A stretch of DNA of 47,781 bases from assembly GCA_021788175.1 (NCBI GenBank), contig JAJYKX010000001.1:1-47781 (forward strand), read 5' to 3'. Source of the stretch: Chloroflexota bacterium (lineage in GTDB: Bacteria; Chloroflexota; Limnocylindria; Limnocylindrales; CSP1-4). The position numbers were made by a program, and so were the translations under genes. The notes under the pieces were generated by a model. That model saw nothing but the letters and a program-made list of their open reading frames with translations. It was not told where the DNA came from and searched no databases. Positions 26,311-45,598 of the stretch are shown piece after piece (position 1 is the stretch's first letter; every line of letters begins with the position of its first letter).

Positions 26311-26320
26311 ACTCGAACCC

Positions 26321-29292: not shown

Positions 29293-30072
29293 TCAGCCCC
29301 GGGTGTCGGTTCCCAGCACCGGCACGCCGCGCGCGAGGGCGGCACGGCGGTTCGCCCAGAGCCGAAGCCGGAGCAGCCAGAAGTCACGCACCGCGCGCAG
29401 GATCACCCGGATCTTCGCGCCGGTGGCCCGCCCGGCCGTGCGCGGGTAGTGGGGCACGCCGACCTCTTCCAGCCGGGCGCCACGGGCGGTCACCTTGATC
29501 AGCAGCTCCGCGGAGAGGAAGGCGCCCCCCGACTCCAGGCGCACGCCGGCCAGTGCCTCGCGGCGGAAGACCTTGCACGCGCAGTCGACGTCCCGCACCC
29601 CCAGCCCGTAGAAGGTCCGCAGTGCGAGCCGGTAGAGCCGGGCGTACACGAGCCGCACCACCGGGTCCGCGCGCCGCAGCCGGTAGCCGACGACGGCGTC
29701 CGGCCCGCCCGGCCGATCGAGCAGCGCCAGCAGGCGCCCCAGGTCCGCCACCCGGAACTGGCGATCGCCGTCGGTGAAACCGATCACCGGGTGACGCGCG
29801 GCCGCGAAGCCGCTGCGCAGGGCGGCCCCGTACCCCAGGTTGGTGCGGTGATGCACGACCCGCACGAGATCCGGGTGCTCGGCGGCGAGTCGGTCGGCGA
29901 TCGCCGGCGTGGCGTCCGTGCTCCCGTCGTCCACCGCGATGATCTCGAAGCGTTCGGCGAGGGCAGGAAGCGCCTCCAGTGCCTCCGCGACGAGCGCCTC
30001 CAGGTTGTCCTGCTCGTCGTGGGCCGGGAAGAAGAAGGAGAAGGCCGGGATGCGCGCGCTGGCCGCAGTCAT
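29293..30072 (-). CDS. GT2 glycosyltransferase, polyprenol/dolichol-phosphate sugar synthase-like (Ppm1/DPM1-type)
   Basis: FSFFFPAHDEQDNLEALV ... FEIIAVDDGSTDAT ... NLGYGAALRSGFAAA ... GFTDGDRQF ... CACKVFRREAL. ATGA overlap with the stop of the upstream DUF2723 gene. Confidence 0.85.
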   Translation of the reverse strand: MTAASARIPAFSFFFPAHDEQDNLEALVAEALEALPALAERFEIIAVDDGSTDATPAIADRLAAEHPDLVRVVHHRTNLGYGAALRSGFAAARHPVIGFTDGDRQFRVADLGRLLALLDRPGGPDAVVGYRLRRADPVVRLVYARLYRLALRTFYGLGVRDVDCACKVFRREALAGVRLESGGAFLSAELLIKVTARGARLEEVGVPHYPRTAGRATGAKIRVILRAVRDFWLLRLRLWANRRAALARGVPVLGTDTRG

Positions 30073-31688
30073 CGGACGATCTCCCAGAGCGGGCTGTAGC
30101 CGGGAATGGTGTCGTGCTGCACGAGATGGTACTGGGACTCCAGCGCGGGGATGTCCTGGAACTGCCGGATCAGGAAGATCGGCCGGCCCTCGGCCTCGAA
30201 GTGGCGCACCGCGTTCTGGACGGTGTCCCAGCCGTCGTCGAGGAGGGTCCGGTCGTCCACGATCTCCACGTCGGGACGGCGCCCCTCGATCCAGCGTCCG
30301 TACCAGAGCGTGGTGGAGTAGCTCCACCACGAGATCACCACCGCGTCGCGCGGGAGGATGGCGTACGCCGCGTCCAGCCACTGGGCCGCCTGGTTGCCCG
30401 TCGCGCCGACCTGTGCCTGCCGCTCGGACAGGGCGCGCTGCGCGGGAAGCGTGAGCACGACCGCGGCCGCCAGCAGCGTCGCCACGACCCGCAGCAGCAG
30501 CGGCGCCACGCCCGAGGACATGCGTCGGCGCACGGCCGGCCGCCAGGCGATCGCGCGGCCGATGGCCCATGCGACGGCGTCCCAGGCGAGCGAGGCGGCC
30601 ACGCCGGCCCACAGCGCGAGGAGCGCGATGGGGACCAGGTAGTAGCGGTCCGGGGACCCATCGTTGTAGGCGCGGGCGAAGATCGTGACGATGACGAACC
30701 AGGTCGCCGCCATGAGGGCGACGGGCCGCCCCACGCTCCGCGGCCGCCGCGCCAGGACCAGCGTGGCGGCGAAGCCGGCGAGCCCGAGCACCACCACCGC
30801 CATGCTGAGGCTGGTGGCGAAGAAGTCGGCCACGGGGGCCAGGCCGCCCGTCAGCGGATCCTGGAGCAGCCCGCGGAACTGCAGCCCCAGGACCAGGTAG
30901 GCGAAGCGGGCGGGCGTGTCCGGGTGCGCGTAATCGAGCGGCGGGTTCATCGACGCCCGGATCGGGATGTACGCGTAGAGGATCACGGTCAGCCCGACGA
31001 TGAGCCCCGCGCACGCCGCGACCAGCCGGCGCCGGCGGGTGAACAGCCCCGGCTGCACGGCCAGCAGGAGGACCAGGATCCCCGGAGCGAGCAGGACGGT
31101 GAGGGCGTGGTTCCCGAGCGCGACCGCATAGACGGTCGACGCCGCGAGCAGGAGCCGGTCGGCCGTCCGGTCACCCGGGTCGTCCGCGGCCGCCCCCACC
31201 TCGCGCACTCGCTGCGCCCACGCCACGAGCAGGTAGAGGAGCAGGCCCGCCAGGAACAGGTGGAAGGCGTGCGGGTCGGCCCGTTCCGCCGTCCACCAGG
31301 TGATGGGCGCGACCGCCAGCAGCAGGCCGGACCCCACGGCCGGGGCCGCGCGCCGGGCCAGGCGATGGACGGTGGCGGCCACGAACGCCGCGCCGCCGGC
31401 CACGAGGATCGCCGACAGCAGGTTGATGCGGTAGGCGGTGTCGCCGAGCGGCGACAGCAGGATGCTGGCCGCCCAGGTCAGCAGGACGTACGAGGGGAAC
31501 CCGGTGGGGTGCGCGATCCCCAGCACCGGTCCCACGGTCTGGAACTCCGCCGTGTCCCAGAACCCGACGCCCGGCATGAGCGTCGGCACGTAGAGGACGA
31601 GCGCCGCGACGAAGGTGACCGCGGCGACCGCAGCGTGGGTCACGCGCGGCGACGCGGCCGCGCGGCCGATCCGGGTCGCGCTCACCAT
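30069..31688 (-). CDS. DUF2723 (TMEM260-like) polytopic membrane glycosyltransferase
   Basis: LYVPTLMPGVGFWDTAEFQTVGPVLGIAHPTGFPSYVLL is the characteristic DUF2723 N-terminal signature as I remember it. Many TM helices follow, then a soluble C-terminal domain. The start, ATG 31688 or GTG 31685, overlaps the upstream stop. Confidence 0.75.
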   Translation of the reverse strand: MVSATRIGRAAASPRVTHAAVAAVTFVAALVLYVPTLMPGVGFWDTAEFQTVGPVLGIAHPTGFPSYVLLTWAASILLSPLGDTAYRINLLSAILVAGGAAFVAATVHRLARRAAPAVGSGLLLAVAPITWWTAERADPHAFHLFLAGLLLYLLVAWAQRVREVGAAADDPGDRTADRLLLAASTVYAVALGNHALTVLLAPGILVLLLAVQPGLFTRRRRLVAACAGLIVGLTVILYAYIPIRASMNPPLDYAHPDTPARFAYLVLGLQFRGLLQDPLTGGLAPVADFFATSLSMAVVVLGLAGFAATLVLARRPRSVGRPVALMAATWFVIVTIFARAYNDGSPDRYYLVPIALLALWAGVAASLAWDAVAWAIGRAIAWRPAVRRRMSSGVAPLLLRVVATLLAAAVVLTLPAQRALSERQAQVGATGNQAAQWLDAAYAILPRDAVVISWWSYSTTLWYGRWIEGRRPDVEIVDDRTLLDDGWDTVQNAVRHFEAEGRPIFLIRQFQDIPALESQYHLVQHDTIPGYSPLWEIVR

Positions 31689-33172
31689 CCGAGCACCACG
31701 CCCCAGTACACCCCCCAGAGGTTGACCAGCACGGAGAGACCGAGGAGGACCAGGACGGCGCGATCCAGCCCGCGCCGGGCCATGGCCAGGGTCACCAGCA
31801 CGAGCGCGAACGGGGCGAAATCGTTGCTGAAGCGCCACCCGAACTGCACCCACCCCTGGCTGAAGTGCGCCAGGTCCGCGAGCGCCACGAGGAGGACCGC
31901 GAGCGCCGCACCGGCGACGAGCCGGTCACGGCGGATCGCCCGCAGGGCGGGGAGCGCGAGCAGGTACGCCGGGCTGGTCAGGATCAGGCTCATCGCGACG
32001 GGGTCGGGCTGGACGGTACCGCAGGTCGGGTCGAGGATCCCCAGGCCGCACGAGAGGTGGACCTGCGGAAGTCGGAACAGGACGAGCGCCAGGTTCTGCG
32101 GGATGTAGCGCAGGTCCTCGATGCCCCACGTCGGATGGTAGAGGGTCGGGTCCGGCCGGTACTCGACGCGGGCGATGGCATTGTAGGCGGGGTTGAAGAG
32201 ATGGCCCGTGGCCGCCAGGTTGTACGCCGCGAGCGCGAGGAGGGGGATCGCCATCCCGATCGCGGCGGAGACCAGGCGCGTGCGCCACGTTCCCCGCCCC
32301 ACGAAGAGCAGGAAGATCCCGCCGAAGGCCACGGTCAGGCGGGAGAGCGCGGCCAGGCCGAGCAGGAACCCGGCCGCGACGTCGCGACGGTCCAGCAGGC
32401 CGCGGGGATCCAGGAACCCGCGGGGGTCCGGCAGGCGGCGCGCGCGATCCTCGCCGGTGCCCTGCCGGATGACCGCGCCGCCCGTCGCGTCGGTCGTCCC
32501 CCGGCCGCGCAGGCCCGCGTCGCCGTCCACGGCCAGGGTGACCGCGAGCAGGGTCAGCCCGAGCGCGACGACGTGTGCCAGGAACCACGTGGTCCCGATG
32601 GCGGCCGCGTACCAGGCGACGGTCCCGAACCCGAAGAAGACCGTCGCCGCGAGCGCCACGCCGCGGTCCGCCGCCACGCGACGGCAGAGCCGCCATGCGA
32701 GTGCGACGTCCACTGCTCCCAGCAGCGCCGCGGTGAGCGAGGCGGGGGTGGCCAGGCCGAGGACCGCCACGACCGGCAGCAGGACGACGGCGGGGAGCGG
32801 CGGGAAAGGGATGATCCCCAGCCCGGGGTGGCCGGGGTCCGGCGCCACGTCCTGGAAGTACCAGTTCTGGTGCGGCCCGGTCGAGACGGGGAACGAGATG
32901 GCCAGGCGGCCGTGCAGCCAGGCCTCCGCCTGCCAGACGAAGTGGTTGTAGAAGTCCGAGTGCAGCGGGTTGGAGACGACGTACACCAGCGCGGCAACGA
33001 CGGCCAGGGCGGCGCCGATCCGCCAGGAGGGGATGGGCGCCAGCAGGTCGCCGATCGCCGTCCGGGGGCCCCGGGTGGGCAGGAGGGGCGGTCCGACGGT
33101 CCACGGGACGGACGCCGGCGCGGGGGCTCCCGCGGTCGTCGGTCCAGTGTCCGTTGCTATACTGCCGTGCAC
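31682..33172 (-). CDS. Polytopic membrane protein, GT-C-fold glycosyltransferase-like (ArnT/PMT-like; family unverified)
   Basis: At least 10 hydrophobic helices. The first loop is SDFYNHFVWQAEAWLHGRLAI ... NWYFQDV ... GIIPFPPLPAVVLLP. GTG 33172 is the only sensible in-frame start; the track ORF continues upstream to 35599 as Arg/Gly-rich antisense junk. Confidence 0.6.
   Translation of the reverse strand: MHGSIATDTGPTTAGAPAPASVPWTVGPPLLPTRGPRTAIGDLLAPIPSWRIGAALAVVAALVYVVSNPLHSDFYNHFVWQAEAWLHGRLAISFPVSTGPHQNWYFQDVAPDPGHPGLGIIPFPPLPAVVLLPVVAVLGLATPASLTAALLGAVDVALAWRLCRRVAADRGVALAATVFFGFGTVAWYAAAIGTTWFLAHVVALGLTLLAVTLAVDGDAGLRGRGTTDATGGAVIRQGTGEDRARRLPDPRGFLDPRGLLDRRDVAAGFLLGLAALSRLTVAFGGIFLLFVGRGTWRTRLVSAAIGMAIPLLALAAYNLAATGHLFNPAYNAIARVEYRPDPTLYHPTWGIEDLRYIPQNLALVLFRLPQVHLSCGLGILDPTCGTVQPDPVAMSLILTSPAYLLALPALRAIRRDRLVAGAALAVLLVALADLAHFSQGWVQFGWRFSNDFAPFALVLVTLAMARRGLDRAVLVLLGLSVLVNLWGVYWGVVLGW
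33155..33163 (+). promoter_or_regulatory. Extended -10 element TGCTATACT for the giant + strand gene
   Basis: TGn plus TATACT at 33155-33163. AGGAGG at 33186-33191 and GTG at 33203 follow. No convincing -35. Confidence 0.4.
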
Positions 33173-33202
33173 CTCGTCGCTCGTCAGGAGGCCCGTTCCC
33201 TG

Positions 33203-36200
33203 GTGCGATCGCCTTCGACGGGTGGGACCGATCGTGGCCTCGGAGCGCCGGGAGGTTCGGCGCGCGCCGGGGTTCGCATCCGCCCCATCGCGCTGCTGCT
33301 GCTCGCCGGTCTCGCTCTCCGGCTCATCATCGCATACGTCCTCTTCCCCGGTTCCGGCTTCAAGACCGACATCTCGAGCTTCACCTCCTGGTCCCTGACG
33401 CTGGCCCACTACGGACCGCCGGGCTTCTATGCCAACGCGGGCTTCGCCGACTACACGCCGGGGTACCTCTACATCCTCTGGCTGGTGGGGCTGGCGGGCC
33501 AGGCGATCGCGACCCTGCTGGGATCGGACCCGGCGGTGGTGGTGGGGCAACTCATCAAGCTGCCGGCGATTCTCTTCGACGTCGCGGTCGCGTACGTCCT
33601 CTACCGGATCGTCCTGGCCTGGAACGGCAGCCTCGATGAGCCGGCCGATGCGGCCGAGTGGTCCGGGGCCGGGTCGAGCACGGCCGCCGGAGCGACAGGC
33701 GGTGCCGGATCGATCACTGCCGCCGGAGCGGCCGGGGCTGCCGGGCGCGGGGGCCGCACGCCGCGGGTCCGGCTGCTCGCCCTCGGCGTCGCGGCGCTCT
33801 ACCTGTTCAACCCGGTCCCGTGGTACGACTCGGCGCTCTGGGGCCAGATGGACTCCCTGGGCGCGCTGCTCGTGCTGGGCGCGATCCTGACCCTGGTGGA
33901 CGGCTGGTCCGAGGCCGCCGCAGCGCTGGCGGTGCTCGCGGCGCTCGTGAAGCCGCAGTTCGGGCTGGTGCTCTCTCCGATCGTGGGCGTCGTGCTGCTC
34001 CGGCGCCACCTGTTCGTGCCCGGCTCGGGACCCGTGCCGCGCCTGCGCAGCGGGCGACTGGCCAGCTGGTTCGTGGACGAGCAGGGCCCGTGGCGGATCA
34101 TCTCCTCGATCGCCGCCGGCCTCTTCGTCCTCTTCGTGACCATCGTCCCGTTCCGCCTCGACGTGGTCGGGCTGGTGCGGCTGGTGTTGTCCACCGCCGC
34201 CGAGTACCACTACCTGACGGTCAACGCCTACAACGGGTGGGCGCTCGTCGCGGATCCCGGCGGCGTCTCGCTCGCGAGCGCGGGGACCTGGTCGAACGAC
34301 CTCGTCCCGCTGCTCGGCCCGCTGTCCGGGTTCGTCATCGGCGCCGCCCTGCTCTTTGCCGGCATCATCCTCGGCGTCCTGCAGGTCGCCTGGCGCGACA
34401 GCCGTCGCTCCATCCTGCTCGCCATGGCGTTCCTCTCGCTCGCGTTCTTCGTGCTCCCCACGCGCGTCCACGAGCGGTACCTGTTCCCGATCTTCGTGAT
34501 CCTGCCGCTGCTCGCGATGACCTCGCGCCGCTGGCTGGTCGCGACGGTCGTGCTGGCGACCGCGTCGTTCATGAACCTGCACGCCATCCTGACGCTCCCC
34601 CTCTACGCGACCGCCAACATCGCGGACCTGCTGGGCGGCCCGCAGTTCCGGTCCGAGCCCGGTGTCCTCCTCTCTGCCGCGGGGCACATCGCCGTCTTCC
34701 TGGTGGCCCTGGCGGCGCTGGAGCCGGTCGGCTGGCTGGTGCGTCGCCTCCTGGGCCGGCCCGATGTCGCCGCCGGGTGGGCCGGGGCGCCGGCAGGGGC
34801 GTCGATTACGGTGCCGTCGGCATCCGGACAGCCGCGCGCGCCGCTGGCCAGCGGGCCGCTCTCCGCCACGACGCCGCTTGCCACCGCCGTGCCGCCGGCC
34901 GCAGAGCCGGTCTCCACCACTGCGCCTCTCTCTGCCACGGGGCCGGTGATCGCCCCGCCGCCCTCTGCCGCGGGGCCGGTGATCGCCCCGCCGCTCCCCG
35001 CCGCGCCCGCGACCGGCGCGCCGGAGGCCGAGTGGGTCCCGCGCCCGGCGACCCGGTGGGGCCTGGGGGCCCTGCGCAATCTCCTCGGCCCGGGGTCGAT
35101 CCGCGCCGACCGCAGCGCCTCCCTCCGCCACGAGGGAACCGGCCGCGTGGACCGGCTGGACGTGCTGGTCATGGCCCTGCTCTTCGTGGCCGCCATGACC
35201 ACCCGGATCGTGGGCCTCTCCCAGCCGTACGGCATGTACTTCGACGAGATCTATCACGCCCGCACCGCCACCGAGTTCCTGCAGGACTGGCGTTACGGGA
35301 TGCCGCACGCGATCTACGAGTTCACGCACCCGCACCTGGCGAAGTACCTCATGGCCGTGGGCCTGGTGACGTTCGGGGACGACCGGGTCACCGGCACCAG
35401 CAACCTGGGCGTGCCGGTGCGCGATGCCGCCATCGAGCCGCGCTGGTCCGACCCGGGCGTCTCGGCGGGGCGGCAGGGGGACCGCCTCTACGTCGCGACC
35501 GGGAGCGACGTGCTCGCCTACGACCTCCAGACGCGCGGCCTGGTGGCACGCATCCCCGTGCCGGGCGCCACCGCGGTGGCGGTCGACACGTTCCAGCACG
35601 TGATCTACGCGGCCGGGACCGACGGCGTCATCTGGTCGGTGCCGGGCGCCACCCTGGATGCGCTGCGCTCGTCGGGCGGCGGCGAGGCCACCGTCCAGCC
35701 CGCGCGGCTGCCCGGACCGGGAGCCGGCGGCCAGGTCGTCCGGCTGGTCGCCTCGACCACCGGCGGCAGCGTGCTGGCGGTCACCGCGAACGGTGCCATG
35801 GTCAGCCTCGACACCACGACGGGCGCCGTGCTGGGCCGCAACTCGGCCAGCGCGCAGGCCGGCACCGGACCGGTGGAGGGCGTGGTCGCCCTCGATCCGG
35901 TGACCGACGTGACGGTGGATCTCTCGAAGCCCTACGATCCTGCCCAGCTCGCCTCCCTCACGACCGCGCTCGGTGTGGCGTCCGGGCCGGCGGTCGAGCT
36001 GCCCGCGGCCGTCACGAAGGCGGAGGCGACGGTCGCCTCGGCCTCCGCGTCGGTGCAGCGGTACGCCAGCCTGCGGGCACGCACCGCGGCGCAGGAGCAG
36101 GCGCTCGCGACGGCCCGGCAGGCGCTCGCGTCGGCGCAGGCGCAGCTGGCCGCCGCGAAGGCGAGCCTGCGGACGGTGGTCGTCTCCGGATTCCTGAGCG

Positions 36201-38911
36201 CGACCCAGCAGACGGCGATCCAGTCCTCACTGCAGGCGCTCGGGAGCGCGGCGCAGCTGAGCAGCTCGCCGGTCTTCGCGGTCTCCGGCGGAACGTCCGT
36301 GCGGTTCCTCGACACGGCGACACTCGACCCCGTCGCCTCGGTGACGCTCCCGGGTCCCGCCGGCGGCATGGGGTTCGCCGACACGACCGACATCGGCCAG
36401 CCGACGCTGTACGTCGCCGAGGGCCGCACGCTGCAGACGGTCCAGCTGCCCGGGGATGGCCCGCCCGTCCTCGGCTCCGCGGTGCCGATGCCCGGGGCGG
36501 TCACCAACGTCACCTGGGACGCGGCCTCGGACATGATCCACGCGCTCGGCACCGCGCCCGACGGGCACACGCCCACGATCTACGTGGTGGAGCCGCACGG
36601 CAACGCGGTCTACGCCAACGCCAACCTGCCGTTCACGCCCGCTGCGTGGGCGCTCGACCAGCAGCCGGGCAACCCCGGCGGCGACCGGCAGCAACTGCTC
36701 AACTTCTCGTCCGCCGGCGAGGTGGCCGCGGTGGATGTCGGCAGCCACGCCTTCGCGTGGCGCCTGCCCGGGGTGATCGCTGGCTCCCTGATGATCGCGC
36801 TCCTCTTCCTGCTGGCCCGCCTCCTGTTCCGCCGCCGCTCGGTGGGCCTGATCCTGGCCGCCATGGCCCTGGTCGACGGGATGTTCTTCGCGAACTCCCG
36901 GATCGGGATGAACGACATCTACTCCGGCCTCTTCATCGTGGCCGCCTACGTCGTCTTCGCGGCCCTGGCGCTCGGCAAGTGGCGGGGGCGGTCCGCCCTG
37001 CTCGTCGGCCTGCCGCTGATGGGTGTCCTGCTGGGGCTGGCCTGTGCCTCCAAGTGGGTGGGCTTCTACGCCATCGGCGGCATCGGCCTGCTGACGCTGC
37101 TGCGCAGCGGCCTGGGACGGACCCTCGCCCTCGGCTCGATGGCGGCCCTCACCGGGATCCTGGGCTACTACTCGATCAGCGCCGCACCCGACGTGACCAA
37201 CCCGCAGCTGAACGTCACGTTCCTGCTGATGATGATCGGGCTCACGCTGCTGCTGGCGGCGGGGGTCGCGGTGCGCAGCATGCACTGGACCGTGGAGGAG
37301 CTGCGCTTCGCGGTCTGGGGGCCGCTGGTCCTGGCGGCCGCGGCCGGCGCGGCCGCGATCCTCCTGGGTACCAGGCCGGGGTTCCCGGTCTCGCAGGTGG
37401 CGCTGCTGGGGGTGGCGCTCCTGCTGCTGGTGGTGGCGGTGGTCGCCTACGCGGCGCCGCTCGTGCTGGCGCGATACCGGGCCGGACCGCTGGCGCCCCC
37501 GCCCGAGCCGGGCGAGGCGCGCACCTACGTCGATCCGCCGGCGTCACCGCCCTCGGAGGACTGGCTGGTGCCGGGCGCCGGACGGGGACTGCCCTGGCTG
37601 TGGGCCCTGCTCTGCATGACCCTGATCCCGCTCGTCGTCTACGTGATCAGCTACATCCCCTGGGTGGCCCTGGGAAACCAGTTCTGGACCGGGTTCCCGC
37701 CCGGCAACCACGGGCAGACGCTGTGGCAGCTGACGGTCGAGATGTTCAACTACCACAACGACCTGCGCGTTCCGCACCCGGCATCGTCGCCGTGGTGGGC
37801 CTGGCCGTTCGACCTGAAGCCGGTCTGGTGGTACCAGGGATCGCTGGCGAACGGCACCGGCGCCTCCATCTACGACACCGGCAACCTGGTCCTCTTCTGG
37901 CTCTCGATCCCGGCGTTCCCCTGGGTGGCCTGGCAGGCGTGGCGGCGCCGCAGTCTCGCGCTCGGGATCGTGGTGTTCGCCGCCGCCAGCCAGTGGCTGC
38001 CCTGGGTCTGGGTCGACCGCGCGACGTTCCAGTACCACTTCCTGACCACGCTGCCCTTCACCTTCCTCGCGCTCGCCTACTTCGTGGCGGAGCTCTGGCA
38101 CGGGCCATCGCGCCGGACCTGGGCGCTGGCGCGGATCTCCGCGGCCATCGCGATCCTGGGCCCGGCCATCCTGTGGCTGCTCAAGGGGCCGCTCTGCACG
38201 CTCGCCGGCACCGCCATCGTCGATCCGGCATCGCAGGTGTGCGGCACCGTGGCCAACCCCGTGATCGTGACCCAGCGTGTGACCGCGGCAGCGGTGGTGC
38301 TCGTCATCGGCGCGGTGGCCACGGCGTGGCTCTGGTGGTCGGGGCGGAGGAGCGCCCTGGCCGAGGGTCGTGTCGGCGCCCGCGCGGTCCTGCCGGTCGG
38401 GATCGCCGTGGCGGCCACGCTGCTGGCCCTGGCGGTCGCGCAGACGGTGGTGCCGGACGTGCAGCTCCTCTCGGTGCCGCTGGGCAGCGGGGGCCCGCTC
38501 GTGGTCGCCGCCATCGTGGGGCTGCTGCTGCTGGGCCCCGCCTGGCTGGCGTTCCGGGCGCGCGACCCGCGGCGGTTCGCGGTGGGCATCCTGGTCGCGG
38601 CCGCACTCTGGTTCGTGGTCTGGTACCCGAACATCTCGGCCCTGCCGCTCCCGGCCTCGTTCGTCAACATGTACCAGGGGCTGCTGCCGACCTGGATCTA
38701 CGACTTCCAGTTCACCGTCAACATGACGCCCGCCGCGCACCCGAAGCTGCTCACCGCCGGCACGGTGGCCCTGATCGCGGCCGTCGGGATCGGGTCGGTG
38801 GCCGTGATGTACGCCGCGCGGGCCTGGCGACTGGAGCTGGCGGTGCGACGCGCCGAGCGGGAGGGCCGGCTCCTGGACGGCACCGCCGGCGAGGGGCGCG
38901 CGACGCCCTGA
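33203..38911 (+). CDS. Giant (1902 aa) fusion of two GT-C membrane glycosyltransferase modules; the second is GT39/PMT-like and is interrupted by a soluble insertion of about 455 aa
   Basis: One frame is uninterrupted. Module 1 (about 33203-34770): FKTDISSFTSWSL...DYTPGYLYILWL...VKPQFG...RVHERYLFP. Pro/Ala linker: about 34770-35140. Module 2: YGMYFDEIYHARTATEF (PMT DE-type loop) ... insertion about 35380-36750 ... FANSRIGMNDIYSGLF ... FQYHFLTTLPFTFLALAYF (PMT_4TMC-like). AGGAGG lies 11 nt before GTG 33203. Confidence 0.72.
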   Translation: MRSPSTGGTDRGLGAPGGSARAGVRIRPIALLLLAGLALRLIIAYVLFPGSGFKTDISSFTSWSLTLAHYGPPGFYANAGFADYTPGYLYILWLVGLAGQAIATLLGSDPAVVVGQLIKLPAILFDVAVAYVLYRIVLAWNGSLDEPADAAEWSGAGSSTAAGATGGAGSITAAGAAGAAGRGGRTPRVRLLALGVAALYLFNPVPWYDSALWGQMDSLGALLVLGAILTLVDGWSEAAAALAVLAALVKPQFGLVLSPIVGVVLLRRHLFVPGSGPVPRLRSGRLASWFVDEQGPWRIISSIAAGLFVLFVTIVPFRLDVVGLVRLVLSTAAEYHYLTVNAYNGWALVADPGGVSLASAGTWSNDLVPLLGPLSGFVIGAALLFAGIILGVLQVAWRDSRRSILLAMAFLSLAFFVLPTRVHERYLFPIFVILPLLAMTSRRWLVATVVLATASFMNLHAILTLPLYATANIADLLGGPQFRSEPGVLLSAAGHIAVFLVALAALEPVGWLVRRLLGRPDVAAGWAGAPAGASITVPSASGQPRAPLASGPLSATTPLATAVPPAAEPVSTTAPLSATGPVIAPPPSAAGPVIAPPLPAAPATGAPEAEWVPRPATRWGLGALRNLLGPGSIRADRSASLRHEGTGRVDRLDVLVMALLFVAAMTTRIVGLSQPYGMYFDEIYHARTATEFLQDWRYGMPHAIYEFTHPHLAKYLMAVGLVTFGDDRVTGTSNLGVPVRDAAIEPRWSDPGVSAGRQGDRLYVATGSDVLAYDLQTRGLVARIPVPGATAVAVDTFQHVIYAAGTDGVIWSVPGATLDALRSSGGGEATVQPARLPGPGAGGQVVRLVASTTGGSVLAVTANGAMVSLDTTTGAVLGRNSASAQAGTGPVEGVVALDPVTDVTVDLSKPYDPAQLASLTTALGVASGPAVELPAAVTKAEATVASASASVQRYASLRARTAAQEQALATARQALASAQAQLAAAKASLRTVVVSGFLSATQQTAIQSSLQALGSAAQLSSSPVFAVSGGTSVRFLDTATLDPVASVTLPGPAGGMGFADTTDIGQPTLYVAEGRTLQTVQLPGDGPPVLGSAVPMPGAVTNVTWDAASDMIHALGTAPDGHTPTIYVVEPHGNAVYANANLPFTPAAWALDQQPGNPGGDRQQLLNFSSAGEVAAVDVGSHAFAWRLPGVIAGSLMIALLFLLARLLFRRRSVGLILAAMALVDGMFFANSRIGMNDIYSGLFIVAAYVVFAALALGKWRGRSALLVGLPLMGVLLGLACASKWVGFYAIGGIGLLTLLRSGLGRTLALGSMAALTGILGYYSISAAPDVTNPQLNVTFLLMMIGLTLLLAAGVAVRSMHWTVEELRFAVWGPLVLAAAAGAAAILLGTRPGFPVSQVALLGVALLLLVVAVVAYAAPLVLARYRAGPLAPPPEPGEARTYVDPPASPPSEDWLVPGAGRGLPWLWALLCMTLIPLVVYVISYIPWVALGNQFWTGFPPGNHGQTLWQLTVEMFNYHNDLRVPHPASSPWWAWPFDLKPVWWYQGSLANGTGASIYDTGNLVLFWLSIPAFPWVAWQAWRRRSLALGIVVFAAASQWLPWVWVDRATFQYHFLTTLPFTFLALAYFVAELWHGPSRRTWALARISAAIAILGPAILWLLKGPLCTLAGTAIVDPASQVCGTVANPVIVTQRVTAAAVVLVIGAVATAWLWWSGRRSALAEGRVGARAVLPVGIAVAATLLALAVAQTVVPDVQLLSVPLGSGGPLVVAAIVGLLLLGPAWLAFRARDPRRFAVGILVAAALWFVVWYPNISALPLPASFVNMYQGLLPTWIYDFQFTVNMTPAAHPKLLTAGTVALIAAVGIGSVAVMYAARAWRLELAVRRAEREGRLLDGTAGEGRATP
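34931..34996 (+). repeat. Tandem 2 x 33-nt in-frame duplication in the inter-module linker (SATGPVIAPPP / SAAGPVIAPPL)
   Basis: 34931-34963 is tctgccacggggccggtgatcgccccgccgccc. 34964-34996 is tctgccgcggggccggtgatcgccccgccgctc. The copies differ at 2 positions. Confidence 0.88.
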
Positions 38912-39014
38912 CGCGGATCCCTGACCGGCGCGCACCGCGCTGCGGCCGGATGGCTGACGCGGCCGCGTCGTGCTGCGGCCACCGCCGGCCGGGTGGCCCG
39001 CCCGGCGCCGCGCG

Positions 39015-40214
39015 CTACCCGGGCGTGCCGGCGGCGGTCGGGATCGCAGACGGCGCCCGGGACGGGATCGGTGCCCGGAAGGACGGGGGAAGCTGTCCCT
39101 GGGCGGCCAGGCGCCGGATGACGAACCCGTAGTAGTCGTCCACGCGGGCCGTCACGCGGTCCCAGCCGAACTCGTGCGAGCGCTCCAGCCCCGAGCGGCC
39201 CATCCGCTCCCGGGCCGCTGGATCGTCCAGCAGGTGCGCGATCGCGGCGGCCAGGGCCTCGGGATCGCGTGGGGCCACCAGCAGCGCCTGCTCGCCGCGC
39301 CGCACGACGCCCTTGTATCCGTGGATGTCGCTGCACACGATCGGCTTGCCGGAGGCCATCGCCTCCAGCAGCACGATCCCGAAGGACTCGTGCCCGGTCG
39401 CCGGCGAGACGTACACGTCGGCCGTGGCGAACCACCGCGCCTTCTCGTCCTCGCTCACGCGCCCGAGCATCTCCACCCCGCTGAGACGGCGCGTCATCAC
39501 GTAGCGGCGGGCCTCGCGGTCCTGCGGTCCGTGGCCCACCACCAGCAGGCGGCAGTCCCGGCCCTCGCGCCGCAGGAGACGGAAGGCCTTGAGCAGGTAG
39601 AGGAGCCCTTTTCGGTCCTCGAGGCGACCCACGAACAGCAGGTTGGGCGTGCCGTCGCGCCAGCGCTCGATGGGTCGGGCGGACACGAACCGTTCGACGT
39701 CGACCCCGTTGGGGATCACCTTGTAGTCGCCGGGGAAGTACTTGTCGATGAAGTACCGGGCCGCCGCGCTGACCGCGATCCGGCCGTGGAGCCGCCGCGC
39801 ATAGCCGCCCAGCATCCGGCGACTGAACTCGTAGGCCGGGCTCCACCCGTTGTACGCGTGGAACGTGGCGACGTTGACGCTGGTGGACTCGCGGAGGAGC
39901 ACCAGCGAGAGGAAGGGCACGAAGGGCTCGTGGAAGTGGAGCAGGTCGAACTGCTCGCGGTCGAGGACCTCGCGGCACTGGGAGAGGAACCGCGGCGAGA
40001 CGGTCAGGGTGCCCACGGAGCCGTTGGACGGAACGCTGAAGCCGCGCCCGATCCGGATGATGTCGCCCTCGCTCGACCGCTGCAGGCCGTGGGTGCTGCT
40101 GATGATCCGCACGTCGTGGCCCCGCGCGCGGAGGTGCTGGTGGAGGAACCCGACGTGCGCGTTGACCCCGCCGGGCAGCGGGTAGATGTACGGCGTCACC
40201 AGCCCGATCTTCAC
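39015..40214 (-). CDS. pimA: GT4 glycosyltransferase, PimA-like phosphatidylinositol alpha-mannosyltransferase
   Basis: MKIGLVTPYIYPLPGGVNAHV ... LLHFHEPFVP ... ATFHAY ... IPNGVDVERF ... LLFVGRLEDRKG ... ATGHESFGIVLLEAMASG is collinear along its length with mycobacterial PimA as I recall it (MRIGMVCPYSFDVPGGVQSHV...IHEPNAP...GGESFGIVLVEAMAAG). GTGA overlap with the PHP gene stop. Confidence 0.85.
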   Translation of the reverse strand: MKIGLVTPYIYPLPGGVNAHVGFLHQHLRARGHDVRIISSTHGLQRSSEGDIIRIGRGFSVPSNGSVGTLTVSPRFLSQCREVLDREQFDLLHFHEPFVPFLSLVLLRESTSVNVATFHAYNGWSPAYEFSRRMLGGYARRLHGRIAVSAAARYFIDKYFPGDYKVIPNGVDVERFVSARPIERWRDGTPNLLFVGRLEDRKGLLYLLKAFRLLRREGRDCRLLVVGHGPQDREARRYVMTRRLSGVEMLGRVSEDEKARWFATADVYVSPATGHESFGIVLLEAMASGKPIVCSDIHGYKGVVRRGEQALLVAPRDPEALAAAIAHLLDDPAARERMGRSGLERSHEFGWDRVTARVDDYYGFVIRRLAAQGQLPPSFRAPIPSRAPSAIPTAAGTPG

Positions 40215-41074
40215 GGCGACGCCTCCTGCTCCCCCGGGGCGGCCTCCTCGTCCGACGCCCGGGGCTCGATGAAGCGCGGTGGCCGGAGGTTGCCCCCGGG
40301 GTAGCCGAGATCGCGCCCGGTCCCGTTCCGGAGCAGGGCGCCCCGCAGGTCGTCGCGGATGTCGCGGCTGTACTTGCGGAGCTGCCGGCCGTACATCACC
40401 ACCTGGAACCCGAACGTCCAGAACTCGCCGTGCCAGCCCGTGCGGTGCTCGAGGATCGCCTGGCGGAGATCCTCCGCGGTGTGGCCGGGAAAGGTCGTGT
40501 AGCCGGTGGCGATCGCCTCGAGGAGGTGCGCATCACTGCCCCCCGTGGTGGCCATCCGAAGCTCGTCGGCGAGCCGGACCGTCTGCGCGTGGTGCGTCCG
40601 CCCGGCGGTGGTCGGGTTGAATGCCTCCAGCGCGTCGAGGTGGAAGCGCGGATCCGGGTCGGCCTGGAAGCGGCGGATGGACCGGCCGCTCGCGCAGATC
40701 GGGTACGGTGCCAGGGGGTGGGCGGCGATGGCCAGGCCTCCCTGCTCGTGGACGGCCGCGATGGTGGCCCGCAGTGACTGGAGGGGCCGGATGCGCTCCT
40801 GCAGGAACAGCGCCAGCAGGTGCCCGCCTCGCGTGGTGATCTCCTCGCCCACGATCACCTCGACCCGCGAGTCCCTGGCGCGGGCGAGCGCCCGTGCGGC
40901 CAGCCCGGCGTCCACCCGCTCGTGATCGGAGATCCCGATGACGTCGAGATCCGTGTTCCGCTCGACGTGGTCGAGGATCTCCTCGATGCTCGCCACGCCG
41001 TCGGACGCAAGGGTGTGGATGTGCAGGTCCGCCCTCCCCAGGCGCACCGTATCGGGCCGATCGTGACCGTTCAT
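40211..41074 (-). CDS. PHP-domain metal-dependent phosphoesterase (COG0613/TrpH-YciV-like)
   Basis: RADLHIHTLASDGVASIEEILDHV ... DVIGISDHERVDAG ... GEEITT ... AIAAHP ... TTGGSDAHLLEAI is the PHP His/Asp pattern. ATGA overlap upstream and GTGA overlap downstream. Confidence 0.8.
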   Translation of the reverse strand: MNGHDRPDTVRLGRADLHIHTLASDGVASIEEILDHVERNTDLDVIGISDHERVDAGLAARALARARDSRVEVIVGEEITTRGGHLLALFLQERIRPLQSLRATIAAVHEQGGLAIAAHPLAPYPICASGRSIRRFQADPDPRFHLDALEAFNPTTAGRTHHAQTVRLADELRMATTGGSDAHLLEAIATGYTTFPGHTAEDLRQAILEHRTGWHGEFWTFGFQVVMYGRQLRKYSRDIRDDLRGALLRNGTGRDLGYPGGNLRPPRFIEPRASDEEAAPGEQEASP

Positions 41075-42063
41075 GCCTGTTCCTCCGCCCACAGCGGCTG
41101 GAAGATCGACCACCACTGCTCGGGCGCCTCGGCGATCAGCCGCTCGAATGTCCGTGCCGCCTGGTCCAGGACCCGGCGCGCGCGTTCGTGCCGCGTCCCC
41201 GGGGGCGGCGCCTCGAGCGGCACGACGAACGCCCGGTAGTCCGTCCACCCGACGCGGATGCCCGCCGCGACGAAGGCGGGCACGCCCGACTCGGCGACCA
41301 GGACGCCCGGCCCGGCGGGCAGACGGGTGGTGGCGCCGAACAGCCGGACGGCCACGCCGGGCCCACCCACCCCCCGGTCCGCGATGAGGCCGACGATGTC
41401 CCCGCGCGCAAGCGCCCGCTCGAGCGCCGTGCGCGACCCTCGACTGGGGATGATCTCCACCCCGGTGCGGCCGCGACTGCGCTCCATGTAGGCCTGCAGG
41501 GGCGCGTTGCGGAGCGTCTCCATGGGTGCCACCGCGTGCCGGCCCCGCATCACCGTGATGTATTGCGCCGGGAGCTCGAGCGCCCCCAGGTGGAGCCCGA
41601 TCACGATCGACGGCCCGGGCCGGTCGATCTCGCGATCCGCCACTTCGGGATCCTCGAGCTGGAGGTGGCGCTCCAGGAACGCGCGGTCCACCCTGGCGTT
41701 GCGCACCACCTCGAGGTAGTAGCGGGCGCGGTGGCCGAAGGCGTCGCGCAGGAGACGCTCGAGCGCCGCCGGGTCGTGGGCTGCCCTCCGGATGCGCGGC
41801 GAGGCGGTCCCGTTCGCGTCGAGCCACTGGCAGACGCGCCGGAGGTTGGCGCGGGCAAGAGTCCGCTGCCCCGGCGCGACGAGATACCAGCCCGCGCCCA
41901 CCACATGGGCGATGCGATGGAGGGCCCCTGCCGGCAGCGGCGCGACCAGCGTGGAGAGACCCTCCAGGGCTGCGGCGCCCGCGCGCTGTCGCAGCGTGGG
42001 TCGGGAGGCGGGTCCTCCGCCCCGTGCGCCGTGCTCCGCGGTGCGCAGGCGTCGCTCAGGCAC
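41071..42063 (-). CDS. LPLAT-superfamily acyltransferase, HtrB/PatA-like (copy 2)
   Basis: LHRIAHVVGAGWYLVAPGQRTLARANLRRV ... IVIGLHLGALELPAQY ... GDIVGLIADRGVGGPGVAVRLFGATTRLPAGPGVLV ... PEQWWSIFQPLW. The proposed GTG 42063 overlaps the upstream stop by 8 nt; start uncertain. Confidence 0.75.
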   Translation of the reverse strand: MPERRLRTAEHGARGGGPASRPTLRQRAGAAALEGLSTLVAPLPAGALHRIAHVVGAGWYLVAPGQRTLARANLRRVCQWLDANGTASPRIRRAAHDPAALERLLRDAFGHRARYYLEVVRNARVDRAFLERHLQLEDPEVADREIDRPGPSIVIGLHLGALELPAQYITVMRGRHAVAPMETLRNAPLQAYMERSRGRTGVEIIPSRGSRTALERALARGDIVGLIADRGVGGPGVAVRLFGATTRLPAGPGVLVAESGVPAFVAAGIRVGWTDYRAFVVPLEAPPPGTRHERARRVLDQAARTFERLIAEAPEQWWSIFQPLWAEEQA

Positions 42064-43267
42064 TCGCAGCGCCCTCGTCGACGAGACCAGGGTCGAGCGC
42101 CACCGGTTCCGGGGCCGTCGCTCGTGGCGCGGCGGGCTCCTCCGCCGCCGGTTCCGCCCCGCCGGCCTGCCGCCGACGTCGCCGGGCCGCACGGTCGCCG
42201 CGATCGGTCAGCGCCGCCGCGGCGCGCTCGGCAAGGTGGCTCGCCTCGGCGGCCGTCTCCGGCCAGATCGGCTTGAAGCAGTACCACTGGGACGGTTCCG
42301 TGGCGATGGCCGCCTGGAGGGCGTCGGCCACGGTCTGCGTGGCGCGCTGGATCTCGGCCGGGGAATCGCCCTCGACCTCGATCGGCTCGCCGTGCTCCGC
42401 GTGGTAGCGACCGTCGGCCGCCAGCCGGTTCACCACCGGGACGATCGCCGCGCCGCTCTTCGCGGCGAGCACCGCCGGGCCCGCCGGGAGCGTCGTCCAG
42501 TCCCCGAAGAGCCGGACCGGGATGCCGTCCGATCGATAGCCCCAGTCCACCAGGAGCGCCAGGATCCCCTGTTCGCGAAGGACGCGGTGGATCTCGCGCA
42601 GGTTGCGCCACGCGATCACCTGCACGCCCCAGCGACGCCGCTGCTCGGCGAGCAGCTCGTACAGCTCGGGGAACGCGGTGTCGTCGGCGACGCCGTACGC
42701 GGGGAACCCGTGGGACGCCATGGCGGCAGCCAGCGTCTCCATGCTCCCCACGTGCAGCGTGACGATGATCATCGCGCGGCCCTCGGCACGAAGCCGCTCG
42801 TACAGGCGCCTGAAGGAGTCGAGCCCGCGGTCGCCGTCCGCGTCCACCAGGCGGGCCGGGACGTCCGGGGGCAGCGCCGGCAGGCGCATCAGCCCGACCA
42901 CGTACCCCGCGTAGGCGCGGTAGACGTCGCGTGCCAGGCGGGCCACGTCCGGGTGCTCCACCGGGAGGCCCAGCACGTGGCCGGCATTCGCGGTGATCGC
43001 CCGTCGCTTGGCGGGCCAGAGCGCGTACCCGGCCAGGAACCCCAGCCGGGCGATGGCCAGCACCGGGCCCTCGGGCAGGTGCCCGAGGGCCCAGGAAGCG
43101 GCGCGATAGGCGCGGACGGTCGCCTTCTCGTTGAGCCGGCGGGCCAGCCGCACGAGGCGCCGCCCATCGGCCGCTCGCCGGTGAGGTGCGTAGGCGACAC
43201 CGCCGGCACCCCGGCTCCGACCGGAGATCGCCTCGCCCGGGGCCGGCCCGCCGTTCGAGGACGGCAT
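42056..43267 (-). CDS. LPLAT-superfamily acyltransferase, HtrB/PatA-like (copy 1) with a charged C-terminal tail
   Basis: LAIARLGFLAGYALWPAKRRAITANAGHVLG ... MIIVTLHVGSMETLAA ... GILALLVDWGYRSDGIPVRLFGDWTTLPAGPAVLA ... PSQWYCFKPIW. ATG 43267 lies 13 nt after the ino1 stop. Confidence 0.75.
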   Translation of the reverse strand: MPSSNGGPAPGEAISGRSRGAGGVAYAPHRRAADGRRLVRLARRLNEKATVRAYRAASWALGHLPEGPVLAIARLGFLAGYALWPAKRRAITANAGHVLGLPVEHPDVARLARDVYRAYAGYVVGLMRLPALPPDVPARLVDADGDRGLDSFRRLYERLRAEGRAMIIVTLHVGSMETLAAAMASHGFPAYGVADDTAFPELYELLAEQRRRWGVQVIAWRNLREIHRVLREQGILALLVDWGYRSDGIPVRLFGDWTTLPAGPAVLAAKSGAAIVPVVNRLAADGRYHAEHGEPIEVEGDSPAEIQRATQTVADALQAAIATEPSQWYCFKPIWPETAAEASHLAERAAAALTDRGDRAARRRRRQAGGAEPAAEEPAAPRATAPEPVALDPGLVDEGAASA

Positions 43268-43280
43268 GCGTCCGACCGGC

Positions 43281-44525
43281 CTAGCCGGCGTGTCCCGTGG
43301 CGGAGGCGGCCCGACGCTTCGGCGAGGAGAGCTTCCGGGCGGGCCGCCTGGCCGGTGCCGGCTCGTCGCCGTGGAGCACCTCGTTGTCCTCGCCACGGAT
43401 GAACGCCTCGACGCGCTCGCGCGCCTGGTCGTCATGGATCTGGATGGGCGGGCTCTTCATGAAGTACGAGGACGGGGCGACCAGCGTCCCGGTGAGGCCG
43501 CGGTCGAGGCCGAGCTTCAGGCAGCGGACGGCGTCGATCACCACGCCGGCGCTGTTGGGGCTGTCCCACACCTCGAGCTTGAGCTCCGCGTTGAGGGGCA
43601 CGTCGCCGAAGGTGGTGCCTTCCATGCGGATGTAGCACCACTTGCGGTCCTGCAGCCACGGCACGTGGTCCGACGGCCCGACGTGGATGTCGTCGGGATC
43701 CAGCTCGTAGTCGAGCATGGAGGTCACGGCGTTGGTCTTGGAGATCTTCTTCGACTCGAGCCGCTCGCGCTCGAGCATGTTGAGGAAGTCCGTGTTGCCG
43801 CCGAAGTTCAGCTGGTAGGTGCGGTCCAGCTTCACGCCGCGGTCCATGAAGAGGCGGGTCATCACGCGGTGGCTGATGGTGGCACCGACCTGGCTCTTGA
43901 CATCGTCGCCGATGATCGGCAGCCCGGCCTCGGCGAAGCGGCGCTGCCAGTAGGGCTCACGGCCGATGAAGACCGGGATGCAGTTGACCACCGCGACGCC
44001 CGCGTTCAGCGCCTGCTCCACGTACCACTTCGTCGCCTCCTCCGAGCCGACGGGGAGGTAGTTGATGACGACGTCGACTTCGCGCTCGCGCAGGATGCCG
44101 GTGATGTCGGCGGTGGGGCCGGGCGCCTTCTCGATGATCTGGCTCAGGTACTTCCCCAGCCCGTCGTGGGTCATGCCGCGCTCGACGGGAACGTTCAGCT
44201 TCGGAACCTGCTGGAAGACGTACGTGTTGTTCGGCTTGGCGTAGATGGCCTCGGAGAGGTCCTTGCCGACCTTGTTCTTGTCGATGTCGAAGGCGGCCAC
44301 GAACTCCAGGTCGCGGATGTGATACCCGCCGAGGTCGACGTGCATGATGCCCGGGATGAAGTCGCCGGGCTCCGCGTCCTCGTAGTAGTAGCGGCCCTGC
44401 ACCAGGCTGCTGGCGCAGTTGCCCACGCCGATGATGGCGACGCGGATCTTGCCGTCGTTGCGCTTCGAGCGCTTGTGGCCGTTCCCCTCCGGGGCAGCCG
44501 CCGTCAGCTTCGTGGTCTCGTCCAC
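43281..44525 (-). CDS. ino1: myo-Inositol-1-phosphate synthase
   Basis: [24 protein letters not shown] (Rossmann) ... [19 protein letters not shown] ... [17 protein letters not shown] ... [11 protein letters not shown] ... [10 protein letters not shown] ... [19 protein letters not shown] start with GGAGGAG upstream. Confidence 0.9.
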
Positions 44526-44531
44526 CGGTGC

Positions 44532-45257: not shown

Positions 45258-45598
45258 GACATCGCCCCCTGCGCCGTGGCCACGAGTCGGTCCTGGCTCC
45301 GCTGGTACCGCTCGAACTCCTCCCTGCGCAGCGTGCAGATCACCTCGCGGCCCACGCGCCGGGTCGCGATCAGCCCGGCGGCGCGAAGCGTCCGGAGGTG
45401 CCAGGAGACGAGCGGCTGCGACAGGTCCACGAACTCCACCAGGTCCGTGACCGTGGCGGGGGATTCCGCGAGCCGCCGGATGATGCGGAGCCTGGTCACA
45501 TCCCCCAGCGCCTTGTGGAACGCGCGCAGGTCGCGCAGCTCGTCCGGCGGGGCGGCGATCGTCGCGATGGTCGACCGGATGTGGGCTGGCGAAGGCAA
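45254..45598 (-). CDS. ArsR/SmtB-family winged-helix transcriptional regulator
   Basis: RAFHKALGDVTRLRIIRRLAESPATVTDLVEFVDLSQPLVSWHLRTLRAAGLIATRRVGREVICTL is the ArsR HTH signature. I chose TTG 45598, which has GAGG 5 nt upstream. The track start ATG 45667 would place a 14-bp AT-only palindrome inside the coding sequence, so the start is uncertain. Confidence 0.72.
   Translation of the reverse strand: MPSPAHIRSTIATIAAPPDELRDLRAFHKALGDVTRLRIIRRLAESPATVTDLVEFVDLSQPLVSWHLRTLRAAGLIATRRVGREVICTLRREEFERYQRSQDRLVATAQGAMS

Follow-up and report, generated by a model that had tools for sequence, protein, structure and literature searches.

A predicted fusion of two GT-C glycosyltransferase modules with a propeller insertion in an uncultured lineage of Chloroflexota

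The window analysed here is a stretch of 47,781 nt (positions 1 to 47,781 of the forward strand of contig JAJYKX010000001.1, assembly GCA_021788175.1) from a Chloroflexota bacterium of the Limnocylindria, with a GC content of about 72%. Its plus strand carries a gene of 5.7 kb, in the following called the giant gene, whose product appears to combine two membrane-embedded glycosyltransferases of the GT-C type. Module 1 forms the N-terminal part. Module 2 resembles protein O-mannosyltransferases (PMTs, family GT39) and is interrupted by a soluble segment predicted to fold as a beta-propeller. Further GT-C candidates, a small GT2 glycosyltransferase and a cluster of inositol-lipid genes are encoded next to it (Table 1). 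A sequence-only reading of the window had described the fusion and proposed a two-step envelope glycosylation machine with its own substrate-recognition domain, which, judged from sequence and structure models, may be regarded as a reasonable hypothesis.

Table 1. Features of the giant gene and of its surroundings, in window coordinates. GC3, GC content at third codon positions; AF2, AlphaFold model; pLDDT, predicted local distance difference test; TRF, Tandem Repeats Finder; TM, transmembrane segment; PIP, phosphatidylinositol-phosphate.
Feature	Position	Strand	Characteristics and basis
Whole gene	33203..38911	+	1902 codons plus stop, GTG start; GC3, AGGAGG, full-length homologs
Module 1, residues 1-520	33203..34762	+	predicted ALG6/PIG-U/Gpi14-like GT-C; Pfam, AF2, Foldseek, invariant columns
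Variable Gly/Ala/Ser/Thr-rich loop, residues 140-190	33620..33772	+	homolog lengths, pLDDT, TRF
Pro/Ala/Arg-rich linker, residues 521-640	34763..35122	+	length variation, composition, TRF, natural splits
PMT start, residues 641-724	35123..35374	+	TM1 654-672, predicted catalytic D681-E682 (35243-35248), HPHLAK 709-714; Pmt1 alignment
Predicted WD40-type beta-propeller, residues 725-1183	35375..36751	+	459 residues; AF2, Foldseek, homolog conservation
Propeller excursion, residues ~907-1016	35921..36250	+	DSSP of AF2 model, homolog lengths
PMT transmembrane core, residues 1184-1640	36752..38122	+	R1187, RIGMND 1233-1238, K1284, PMT_4TMC 1506-1639
Family-specific C-terminal extension, residues 1641-1902	38123..38908	+	~6 TMs; hydropathy scan, conservation
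496-aa polytopic membrane protein, possibly distant GT-C	31682..33172	-	divergent, ~30 nt from giant gene; 56/64 loci
TMEM260-like (DUF2723) GT-C	30069..31688	-	Pfam PF11028, 76.7 bits; 55/60 loci
Small GT2, 259 aa, candidate polyprenyl-phosphate-hexose synthase	29293..30072	-	Pfam Glycos_transf_2; 57/59 loci
Convergent downstream inositol-lipid cluster	39015..45257	-	GT4, PHP_C, two PatA-type acyltransferases, Ino1, PIP synthase

The giant gene and its family

Our analysis confirmed that the region 33203-38911 of the plus strand is one genuine gene. The GC content at third codon positions (GC3) lies between 0.89 and 0.99 in one frame from about 33250 to about 38800, without a frame switch at either module junction. 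The start codon is GTG at 33203, with AGGAGG lying about 11 nt before it; a second GTG, at 33167, is an alternative. The length of the open reading frame (ORF) alone is weak evidence because of the GC content, since overlapping ORFs of 1305 and 1824 residues occur in other frames of the same region without the GC3 signal. The long ORFs 31682-35599 (minus strand) and 33658-39132 (plus strand), both lacking this signal, were rejected as artefacts of GC richness. The frame of the giant gene is open from 31865 to 38911, i.e. beyond the reported ORF. The upstream extension 31865-33200 was discarded, its translation being charged low-complexity junk that runs antisense to the divergent minus-strand gene starting at 33172 and shows no GC3 signal. 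Scans for promoters and terminators at both gene ends found none.

A search of 5.8 billion proteins (E <= 1e-5) yielded 972 matches; length and identity figures refer to the best 120. These are 1464-1946 residues long (119 of them above 1550), share 42-100% identity with the giant protein and derive from NCBI, JGI, ENA and Logan assemblies. Where the source gave names, they were labelled 'phospholipid carrier-dependent glycosyltransferase' or 'Gpi18-like mannosyltransferase' and mostly assigned to Chloroflexota or Candidatus Limnocylindria. At least 527 of the GTDB species representatives have a gene for a relative. Locus counts refer to the best 80 loci, all from uncultured metagenome-assembled genomes (MAGs), 79 titled Chloroflexota or Limnocylindria and one (L020) Methylomirabilota; the family is nearly exclusive to Chloroflexota/Limnocylindria MAGs. 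At 68 of the 80 loci a single ORF covers all five parts: module 1, PMT N-terminus, propeller, PMT core and C-terminal extension. The architecture is no one-off but the norm in a whole uncultured lineage, and it is already present in databases under generic names.

Natural gene splits fall in the linker between the modules. At one locus (L058) the split is clean, the TGA of module 1 overlapping a GTG start. In a distant lineage (protein P0154, locus L081) module 1 has its own gene of 702 aa (hmmsearch E = 3.3e-91), and this gene and the one for the PMT with its propeller share 11 nt. An apparent triple fusion was found in the metagenomic protein P0229 (2390 aa), in which an additional polytopic module of about 700 residues with a soluble tail stands between module 1 and the PMT with its propeller. 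The middle module gave only a 16-bit match to the C-terminus of YfhO and is unrelated to the neighbours of the giant gene in the window. Modules 1 and 2 are always adjacent: in most cases they are fused, in some they are coupled by translation, and in one protein a further module is added. The fusion in 68 of 80 loci, the overlapping codons where the genes are split, and the additional module of P0229 indicate that they belong together.

The joining of two modules in one frame could also result from an assembly chimera, or from a frameshift or stop that was missed between two separate genes. Separate genes do occur, as at least two lineages truly have two, and in 6 of the 80 related loci module 1 lies in another frame than the PMT module. 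Among these six exceptions, however, the frameshift of L048 lies inside module 1, and in four ambiguous cases (L060, L061, L076 and L079, from MFD-labelled MAGs) the frame changes in the linker. Over both junctions of the giant gene GC3 stays continuous in a single frame, and the same fusion recurs in 68 loci and in the 120 listed database proteins from independent assemblies. A chimera is excluded because homologs of 1464-1946 residues come from many such assemblies. An artefact is therefore exceedingly improbable for the giant gene and effectively refuted for the family, and the single 5.7-kb ORF without stop or frameshift, on which the sequence-only reading was built, stands.

Architecture of the encoded protein

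By its profile matches and motifs, module 2 is an enzyme of the PMT/GT39 type. Pfam PMT (PF02366) matches residues 1182-1300 with 47.2 bits against a threshold of 22.7 (profile positions 81-198), and PMT_4TMC (PF16192) scores 41.4 bits against 32.4. The motifs YFDEIYHA and FQYHFL, earlier taken as PMT hallmarks, are borne out by these two matches above threshold, within which they were placed. YFDEIYHA, containing D681 and E682, follows nine residues after TM1, is invariant in 50 homologs and aligns to FDEV of yeast Pmt1. After removal of the insert, Pmt1 49-107 aligns with residues 653-718 and Pmt1 139-251 with residues 1188-1301. The family profile matches Pmt1 (E = 1.6e-4), Pmt4 (E = 0.016) and the chain 9i5k (E = 1.3e-3), which is named only as dolichyl-phosphate-mannose protein mannosyltransferase.

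D681, E682, H709, P710, K714, R1187, D1238 and K1284 are invariant in the 50 homologs. In the Pmt of Streptomyces coelicolor, R82, D113, H159, D233, K302 and R510 are essential (PMC8698208). Motif-level equivalents of these, R651, D681, H709, D1238 and K1284, are invariant in our family, R510 being unmapped; the mapping is by motif and spacing only. At the same level D681, E682, H709, K714, R1187, D1238 and K1284 match essential or conserved residues of the S. coelicolor enzyme (PMC8698208).

With bacterial Pmt enzymes (GT39; Rv1002c of Mycobacterium tuberculosis and S. coelicolor Pmt) module 2 shares the DE motif after TM1, HPxLxK with the loop 1 Arg, RxxxxD, the SKW lysine, the combination of PMT and PMT_4TMC, and the lack of an MIR domain. 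In contrast to them, the giant protein has a predicted 459-residue propeller in loop 1, three extra transmembrane segments, a C-terminal extension of about six transmembrane segments and an upstream GT-C module. Characterised bacterial Pmt enzymes are stand-alone proteins of roughly 500-600 residues with a short loop 1. Pmt runs at about 66 kDa (PMC8698208).

The insert corresponds closely to the segment of about 455 residues that had been located at about 35380-36750. A hydropathy scan left about 500 residues after TM1, including the whole insert, free of transmembrane segments. Its AlphaFold (AF2) model has a pLDDT of 95.6, a predicted TM-score (pTM) of 0.93 and about 27 strands. Foldseek returned more than 1300 significant propeller matches, with target-normalised TM-scores of 0.70-0.80 to seven-bladed WD40 domains (5yzv, WDR5, UTP15 and G-beta), so that the model suggests a closed propeller of four-stranded blades, probably seven in number. 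The proposal of a folded propeller, not a disordered segment, agrees with these figures. A WD40 repeat signature was not detected at the sequence level: Pfam gave no WD40 match, and only sub-threshold matches to PQQ_2/BamB-type and other propellers. The propeller is present in 118 of 118 full-length homologs, and its conservation is highest in the blades that adjoin the loop 1 junctions. It is rare, as 276 of 1.84 billion representative proteins match it (E <= 0.001). Five of these matches were scanned with Pfam, and all of them contain PMT domains; the remaining strong ones have lengths and match positions that fit the same family or its fragments.

In the S. coelicolor enzyme, extracellular loop 1 is reported to hold the DE motif, H159/P161/K164 and also R182, the counterpart of Pmt1 R138 (PMC8698208). 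The insert sits between HPHLAK, a helix too weakly hydrophobic to be flagged as a transmembrane segment, and R1187. From this position among loop 1 motifs, the propeller is placed by homology inside the extracytoplasmic catalytic loop 1.

The propeller is interrupted by an excursion that comprises a long beta-hairpin stalk, two antiparallel helices (residues 929-955 and 962-987, positions 35987-36163) and a small alpha/beta unit. The two long helices account for the central coiled coil that the sequence-only reading had placed at about 36011-36178. The excursion measures 130 aa in this protein; the median is 81 aa, and some homologs have about 10 aa. An interpretation of the coiled coil as a membrane-fusion-protein domain was rejected, since the matches were weak and compositional, with E values no better than 0.002, and since many homologs lack the segment or have only a short one. 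In the distant lineage mentioned above, P0154, P0174 and P0155 (L081, 10001-14320) have a Ser/Thr/Pro-rich stretch, e.g. SSTPTESPTPTASSTPAPTATAS, at the position of the helical hairpin. Such stretches are typical of O-glycosylated extracellular linkers, which hints at a location outside and possibly at self-glycosylation.

Eukaryotic PMT1/2/4 (POMT) enzymes share with module 2 the catalytic fold, the DE loop and a built-in soluble extracytoplasmic domain. This domain is described as a beta-trefoil MIR domain between TM7 and TM8 (PMC12705809). In the giant protein, by contrast, the soluble domain is a predicted WD40-type propeller in the TM1-TM2 loop, and the position of MIR is taken by the three extra transmembrane segments (residues 1338-1417). 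The O-mannosyltransferases TMTC1-4 and TMEM260 also combine a GT-C core with a soluble repeat domain that is thought to select protein acceptors. They carry C-terminal TPR-type repeats and are not known to have a propeller in the catalytic loop.

The C-terminal extension of about 260 residues contains an invariant pair of cysteines, Cys1665 and Cys1680, and the motif YPNxxxLPxP...LLPTWxYDFQF. No Pfam family was found in it beyond the tail of PMT_4TMC. The sequence-only reading had noted neither this extension nor the conservation of the locus.

As described earlier, the modules are joined by a Pro/Ala-rich linker of about 120 residues with a tandem 33-nt duplication. The repeat (TRF, 2.5 copies, 88% matches) is located at 34923-35005. 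The linker is free of transmembrane segments, consists of 18% Ala, 13% Pro and 11% Arg, and varies from 61 to 175 aa among homologs. It is placed in the cytoplasm because of the positive-inside rule and because TM1 of the PMT module must run from inside to outside.

Module 1 is polytopic over about 520 residues as had been proposed, a hydropathy scan (about 11-13 transmembrane segments in residues 29-513) and the AF2 model (13 clear segments; pLDDT 89.6, pTM 0.88) being in agreement. The model indicates a GT-C fold closest to ALG6, PIG-U and Gpi14, and not to PIG-V. The best PDB match found by Foldseek was yeast ALG6 (6snh, TM-scores 0.61/0.66), and further matches were PIG-U, Gpi14/GPI-MT-I (9wno, 0.52/0.64), ALG3 (0.49/0.64) and PimE (9dm7, 0.46/0.61). 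Scanned alone, the module matches Pfam PIG-U (PF06728) above threshold with 30.0 bits against a cut-off of 24.5; the match is partial and aligns residues 116-266 to profile positions 79-193 of 378. Alg6_Alg8 remains below its gathering score (19.7 bits against 25, residues 382-463 only), and precomputed PF03155 matches exist on several homologs. The GT-C identity, which the sequence-only reading had itself named as a point on which it could fail, is upheld by the PIG-U and ALG6 matches. Its designation as PIG-V/COG5542-like needs correction, as ALG6, PIG-U and Gpi14 are nearer. Pfam finds neither PIG-V nor GT87 in module 1, PIG-V not being listed even at E up to 10, although JGI gives many homologs the name 'Gpi18-like mannosyltransferase', which is the COG5542 label. 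A PIG-V or GT87 identity was rejected for want of Pfam support. We likewise rejected the idea that module 1 arose by duplication of the PMT module or a neighbouring gene (hhalign probability at most 4.5%; no BLASTP match to the 496-aa neighbour).

Conserved motifs of module 1 are NPVxWYDSAxWGQxD (203-217), KPQ (250-252) and LPTRVHERYLFP (418-429). D56 (33368-33370), nine residues after the first transmembrane segment, is invariant, as are D83, D126, D209, D217, K250-P251-Q252 and T420-R421-V422-H423-E424-R425-Y426. These residues are kept in predicted outward-facing loops across proteins that are only about 45% identical overall. ALG6, Gpi14 and PIG-U form one structural group, and a first-loop Asp is the catalytic base in ALG6 (D69) and Gpi14 (D39) (PMC12653191). 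D56 occupies this position, so that module 1 combines an ALG6-like fold, with 6snh as its top match, with the first-loop Asp. With the ALG6/Gpi14 (PIG-M)/PIG-U subclass and mycobacterial PimE it shares the fold (TM-scores 0.46-0.66) and an Asp shortly after the first transmembrane segment, and its HE(K/R)-type motif is matched by the Alg6_Alg8 profile. It differs from them in lacking a sequence-level match to solved members, even when the family profile was searched against the PDB, as well as an above-threshold Alg6_Alg8 and any GT87 or PIG-V match in Pfam. We know of no enzyme of the ALG6, Gpi14, PIG-U or PimE type that is fused to a PMT.

The invariant acidic and polar loop residues predict an active enzyme rather than a scaffold. 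Were module 1 instead a non-catalytic GT-C scaffold, comparable to PIG-U in the glycosylphosphatidylinositol (GPI) transamidase, it might bind lipid or stabilise the PMT module in place of a second PMT protomer, and the protein would have one active site. PIG-U is the sole Pfam family above threshold in module 1 and also a strong fold match, and eukaryotic PMTs act as dimers (PMC7759382, PMC12705809). We nevertheless consider a scaffold very unlikely: D56, D83, D126, D209, D217, K250-Q252 and H423-E424-R425 are invariant in predicted outward loops, D56 stands at the position of the ALG6/Gpi14 catalytic base, and the Pfam PIG-U match covers residues 116-266 only. A transamidase gene of the PIG-K type is not annotated among the neighbours examined.

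The loop 140-190 of module 1 has 51 aa in this protein, compared with a median of 10 aa in homologs, and its pLDDT is below 50. The length results from a 36-nt tandem repeat (33664-33744, 2.2 copies, TRF) that expanded the Gly/Ala/Ser/Thr-rich sequence. Together with the repeat in the linker this shows a recent slippage-type expansion of disordered segments in this genome.

Genomic neighbourhood and proposed function

The window spans the chromosomal replication origin region, as jag, yidC, dnaA, dnaN and recF are present (17868-25914). The order recF, PP2C-domain protein, BFN nuclease and glycosylation locus is kept across the lineage. Each neighbour of the giant gene occurs in 88-100% of the loci with enough flank and also in the split lineage L081; RecF, PP2C and BFN are equally conserved.

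For the 496-aa membrane protein encoded divergently to the giant gene no Pfam or NCBIfam family was found even at E up to 10. The only lead is its hhalign comparison with the TMEM260-like neighbour (probability 52%, E = 1.5e-4). The TMEM260-like protein in turn showed no hhalign relationship to module 1 or module 2. NCBIfam matches of the small GT2 protein are sub-threshold and name dolichyl-phosphate-hexose transferase, ArnC and PpgS. Including the giant gene, as many as four modules of the GT-C type and one candidate donor synthase are encoded at the locus.

With moderate confidence we propose that the giant protein is an envelope glycosylation enzyme with two active sites that depends on polyprenyl-phosphate sugars and binds its acceptor by the propeller. 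A single polytopic chain would hold two GT-C active sites, independent of each other. Each would open to the outer face of the cytoplasmic membrane and use a polyprenyl-phosphate-linked hexose, which is probably made by the small upstream GT2. In module 2, Asp681-Glu682 in loop 1 would activate the acceptor hydroxyl, most likely of a Ser or Thr of exported envelope proteins. The propeller, situated between HPHLAK and Arg1187 and presumably over the active site, may serve as an acceptor-binding platform, a role that can be likened to that of the MIR domain of eukaryotic PMTs and the TPR repeats of TMTC-type enzymes. Module 1 has a first loop of its own with Asp56 and would use this residue for another transfer within the pathway; the simplest possibility is that it extends the sugar attached first. 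The Pro/Ala/Arg linker in the cytoplasm would keep the modules at a ratio of 1:1, as translational coupling would do where the genes are split. The analysis shows that the gene is real and establishes both folds, the conservation of the motifs, the site of the insertion, the fusion with its natural splits, and the synteny; donor, acceptor, linker topology and the sequence of the two transfers are inferred. The overlapping stop and start codons of the natural splits (L058 and L081) strengthen the two-step hypothesis, and the adjacency of the GT2 and the other GT-C genes in at least 88% of the loci counts in its favour.

The downstream genes suggest another acceptor. The PIP synthase of the cluster scores 135 bits, both acyltransferases have phosphatidylinositol-mannoside acyltransferase as their best NCBIfam model, and the PHP_C protein is phosphoesterase-like; with an ArsR regulator the set extends over 39015-45598 (minus strand). 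Each gene of the cluster is found in 51-64 of 54-68 loci. The set resembles the actinobacterial pgsA1-patA-pimA arrangement and suggests that glycolipids similar to phosphatidylinositol mannosides (PIMs) may be made in Chloroflexota. Our literature searches (PMC and bioRxiv) found no report of Chloroflexota PIMs.

The giant protein might accordingly take part in the assembly of lipoglycans or glycolipids based on phosphatidylinositol (PI): the adjacent genes would make a PI-anchored glycolipid on which module 1 acts in the manner of Gpi14/PIG-M or PimE, and module 2 would mannosylate proteins in parallel with a shared donor or also act on the lipoglycan. The fold matches of module 1 to Gpi14 (9wno), PIG-U and PimE (9dm7), all of which handle PI-based glycolipids, are in line with this, as are the above-threshold Pfam PIG-U match and the content of the downstream cluster (PIP synthase, Ino1, the two acyltransferases and GT4), which lies next to the gene in 64 of 68 loci as well as in L081. 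The best fold match, ALG6, acts however on a lipid-linked oligosaccharide and not on PI, all NCBIfam matches of the cluster are below equivalog cut-offs, and four loci keep the upstream GT2 and GT-C genes without the downstream PI cluster. Furthermore, module 2 retains the complete PMT signature. Adjacency is weak evidence of a functional linkage in any case because the whole origin-proximal region is collinear, and synteny failed for the same reason to decide between a protein and a lipid acceptor. We regard participation in PI-glycolipid assembly as possible though somewhat unlikely.

A more far-reaching version seems unlikely to us: a PI-anchored glycoconjugate system outside the Actinobacteria, in which module 1 would be a bacterial equivalent of GPI mannosyltransferase I or of PimE, with the PI-glycolipid of the adjacent genes as its substrate. 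Through its covalent coupling to the propeller-bearing PMT, the synthesis of PI-lipoglycan would be physically tied to protein O-glycosylation, or a single machine would receive both a glycolipid and a protein as substrates. If true, this would form an evolutionary bridge between the bacterial PIM and lipomannan pathways and the eukaryotic GT-C enzymes of the ALG and GPI pathways.

Several points weigh against the proposed two-site enzyme with its protein acceptor. Judged by the neighbouring PI-glycolipid genes, module 1 at least may use a lipid as acceptor, and the acceptor of module 2 could be other than protein. The NCBIfam equivalog of Pmt, NF058602, scores only 45.9 bits against a cut-off of 800, so that module 2 is no ortholog of characterised bacterial Pmt. 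The propeller was located over the active site from its position in the sequence only. The cytoplasmic linker derives from the positive-inside rule and the analogy to ALG6, an enzyme with 14 transmembrane segments (PMC12653191), and the 13 clear segments of the module 1 model are not the even number that such a linker needs. Synteny reaches as far as RecF, PP2C and BFN, and every member of the family comes from an uncultured MAG or metagenome.

GT-C enzymes normally consist of a single module, and PMTs are known without a soluble domain in bacteria or with an MIR domain in eukaryotes. The giant protein would represent a different solution, in which the catalytic loop itself houses a propeller and another GT-C, of the ALG6/Gpi14 type, is coupled to it covalently or translationally. 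In agreement with the sequence-only reading, which knew of no described PMT with such an insertion or a second GT-C, our searches of PMC and bioRxiv found no PMT with a propeller in loop 1 and none fused to a second GT-C. Nothing relevant was found there either on Limnocylindria glycosyltransferases of this type or on COG5542/Gpi18-like ones. Both catalytic folds and the propeller fold are familiar; their combination, the insertion site and the conservation throughout the lineage are new.

The giant gene is likely a core determinant of the cell envelope of this lineage, because at least 527 GTDB species genomes encode relatives and the origin-proximal position is fixed. Taken with the adjacent inositol-lipid genes, our results predict that these bacteria make O-hexosylated proteins, PI-anchored glycolipids, or both. 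For structural glycobiology the protein may offer a natural assembly of two enzymes in which the hand-over of an acceptor can be addressed.

Two further observations concern the flanking DNA. The convergent intergenic gap of about 100 nt right after the stop codon of the giant gene contained no terminator-like hairpin in a consensus scan; it harbours a 33-nt tandem repeat at 38914-38980 with two copies and 80% matches. On the plus strand at 26168-28588 a protein of 806 aa is encoded, of which only the N-terminus matches PP2C, the remainder being unannotated, and which is present in 57 of 57 related loci.

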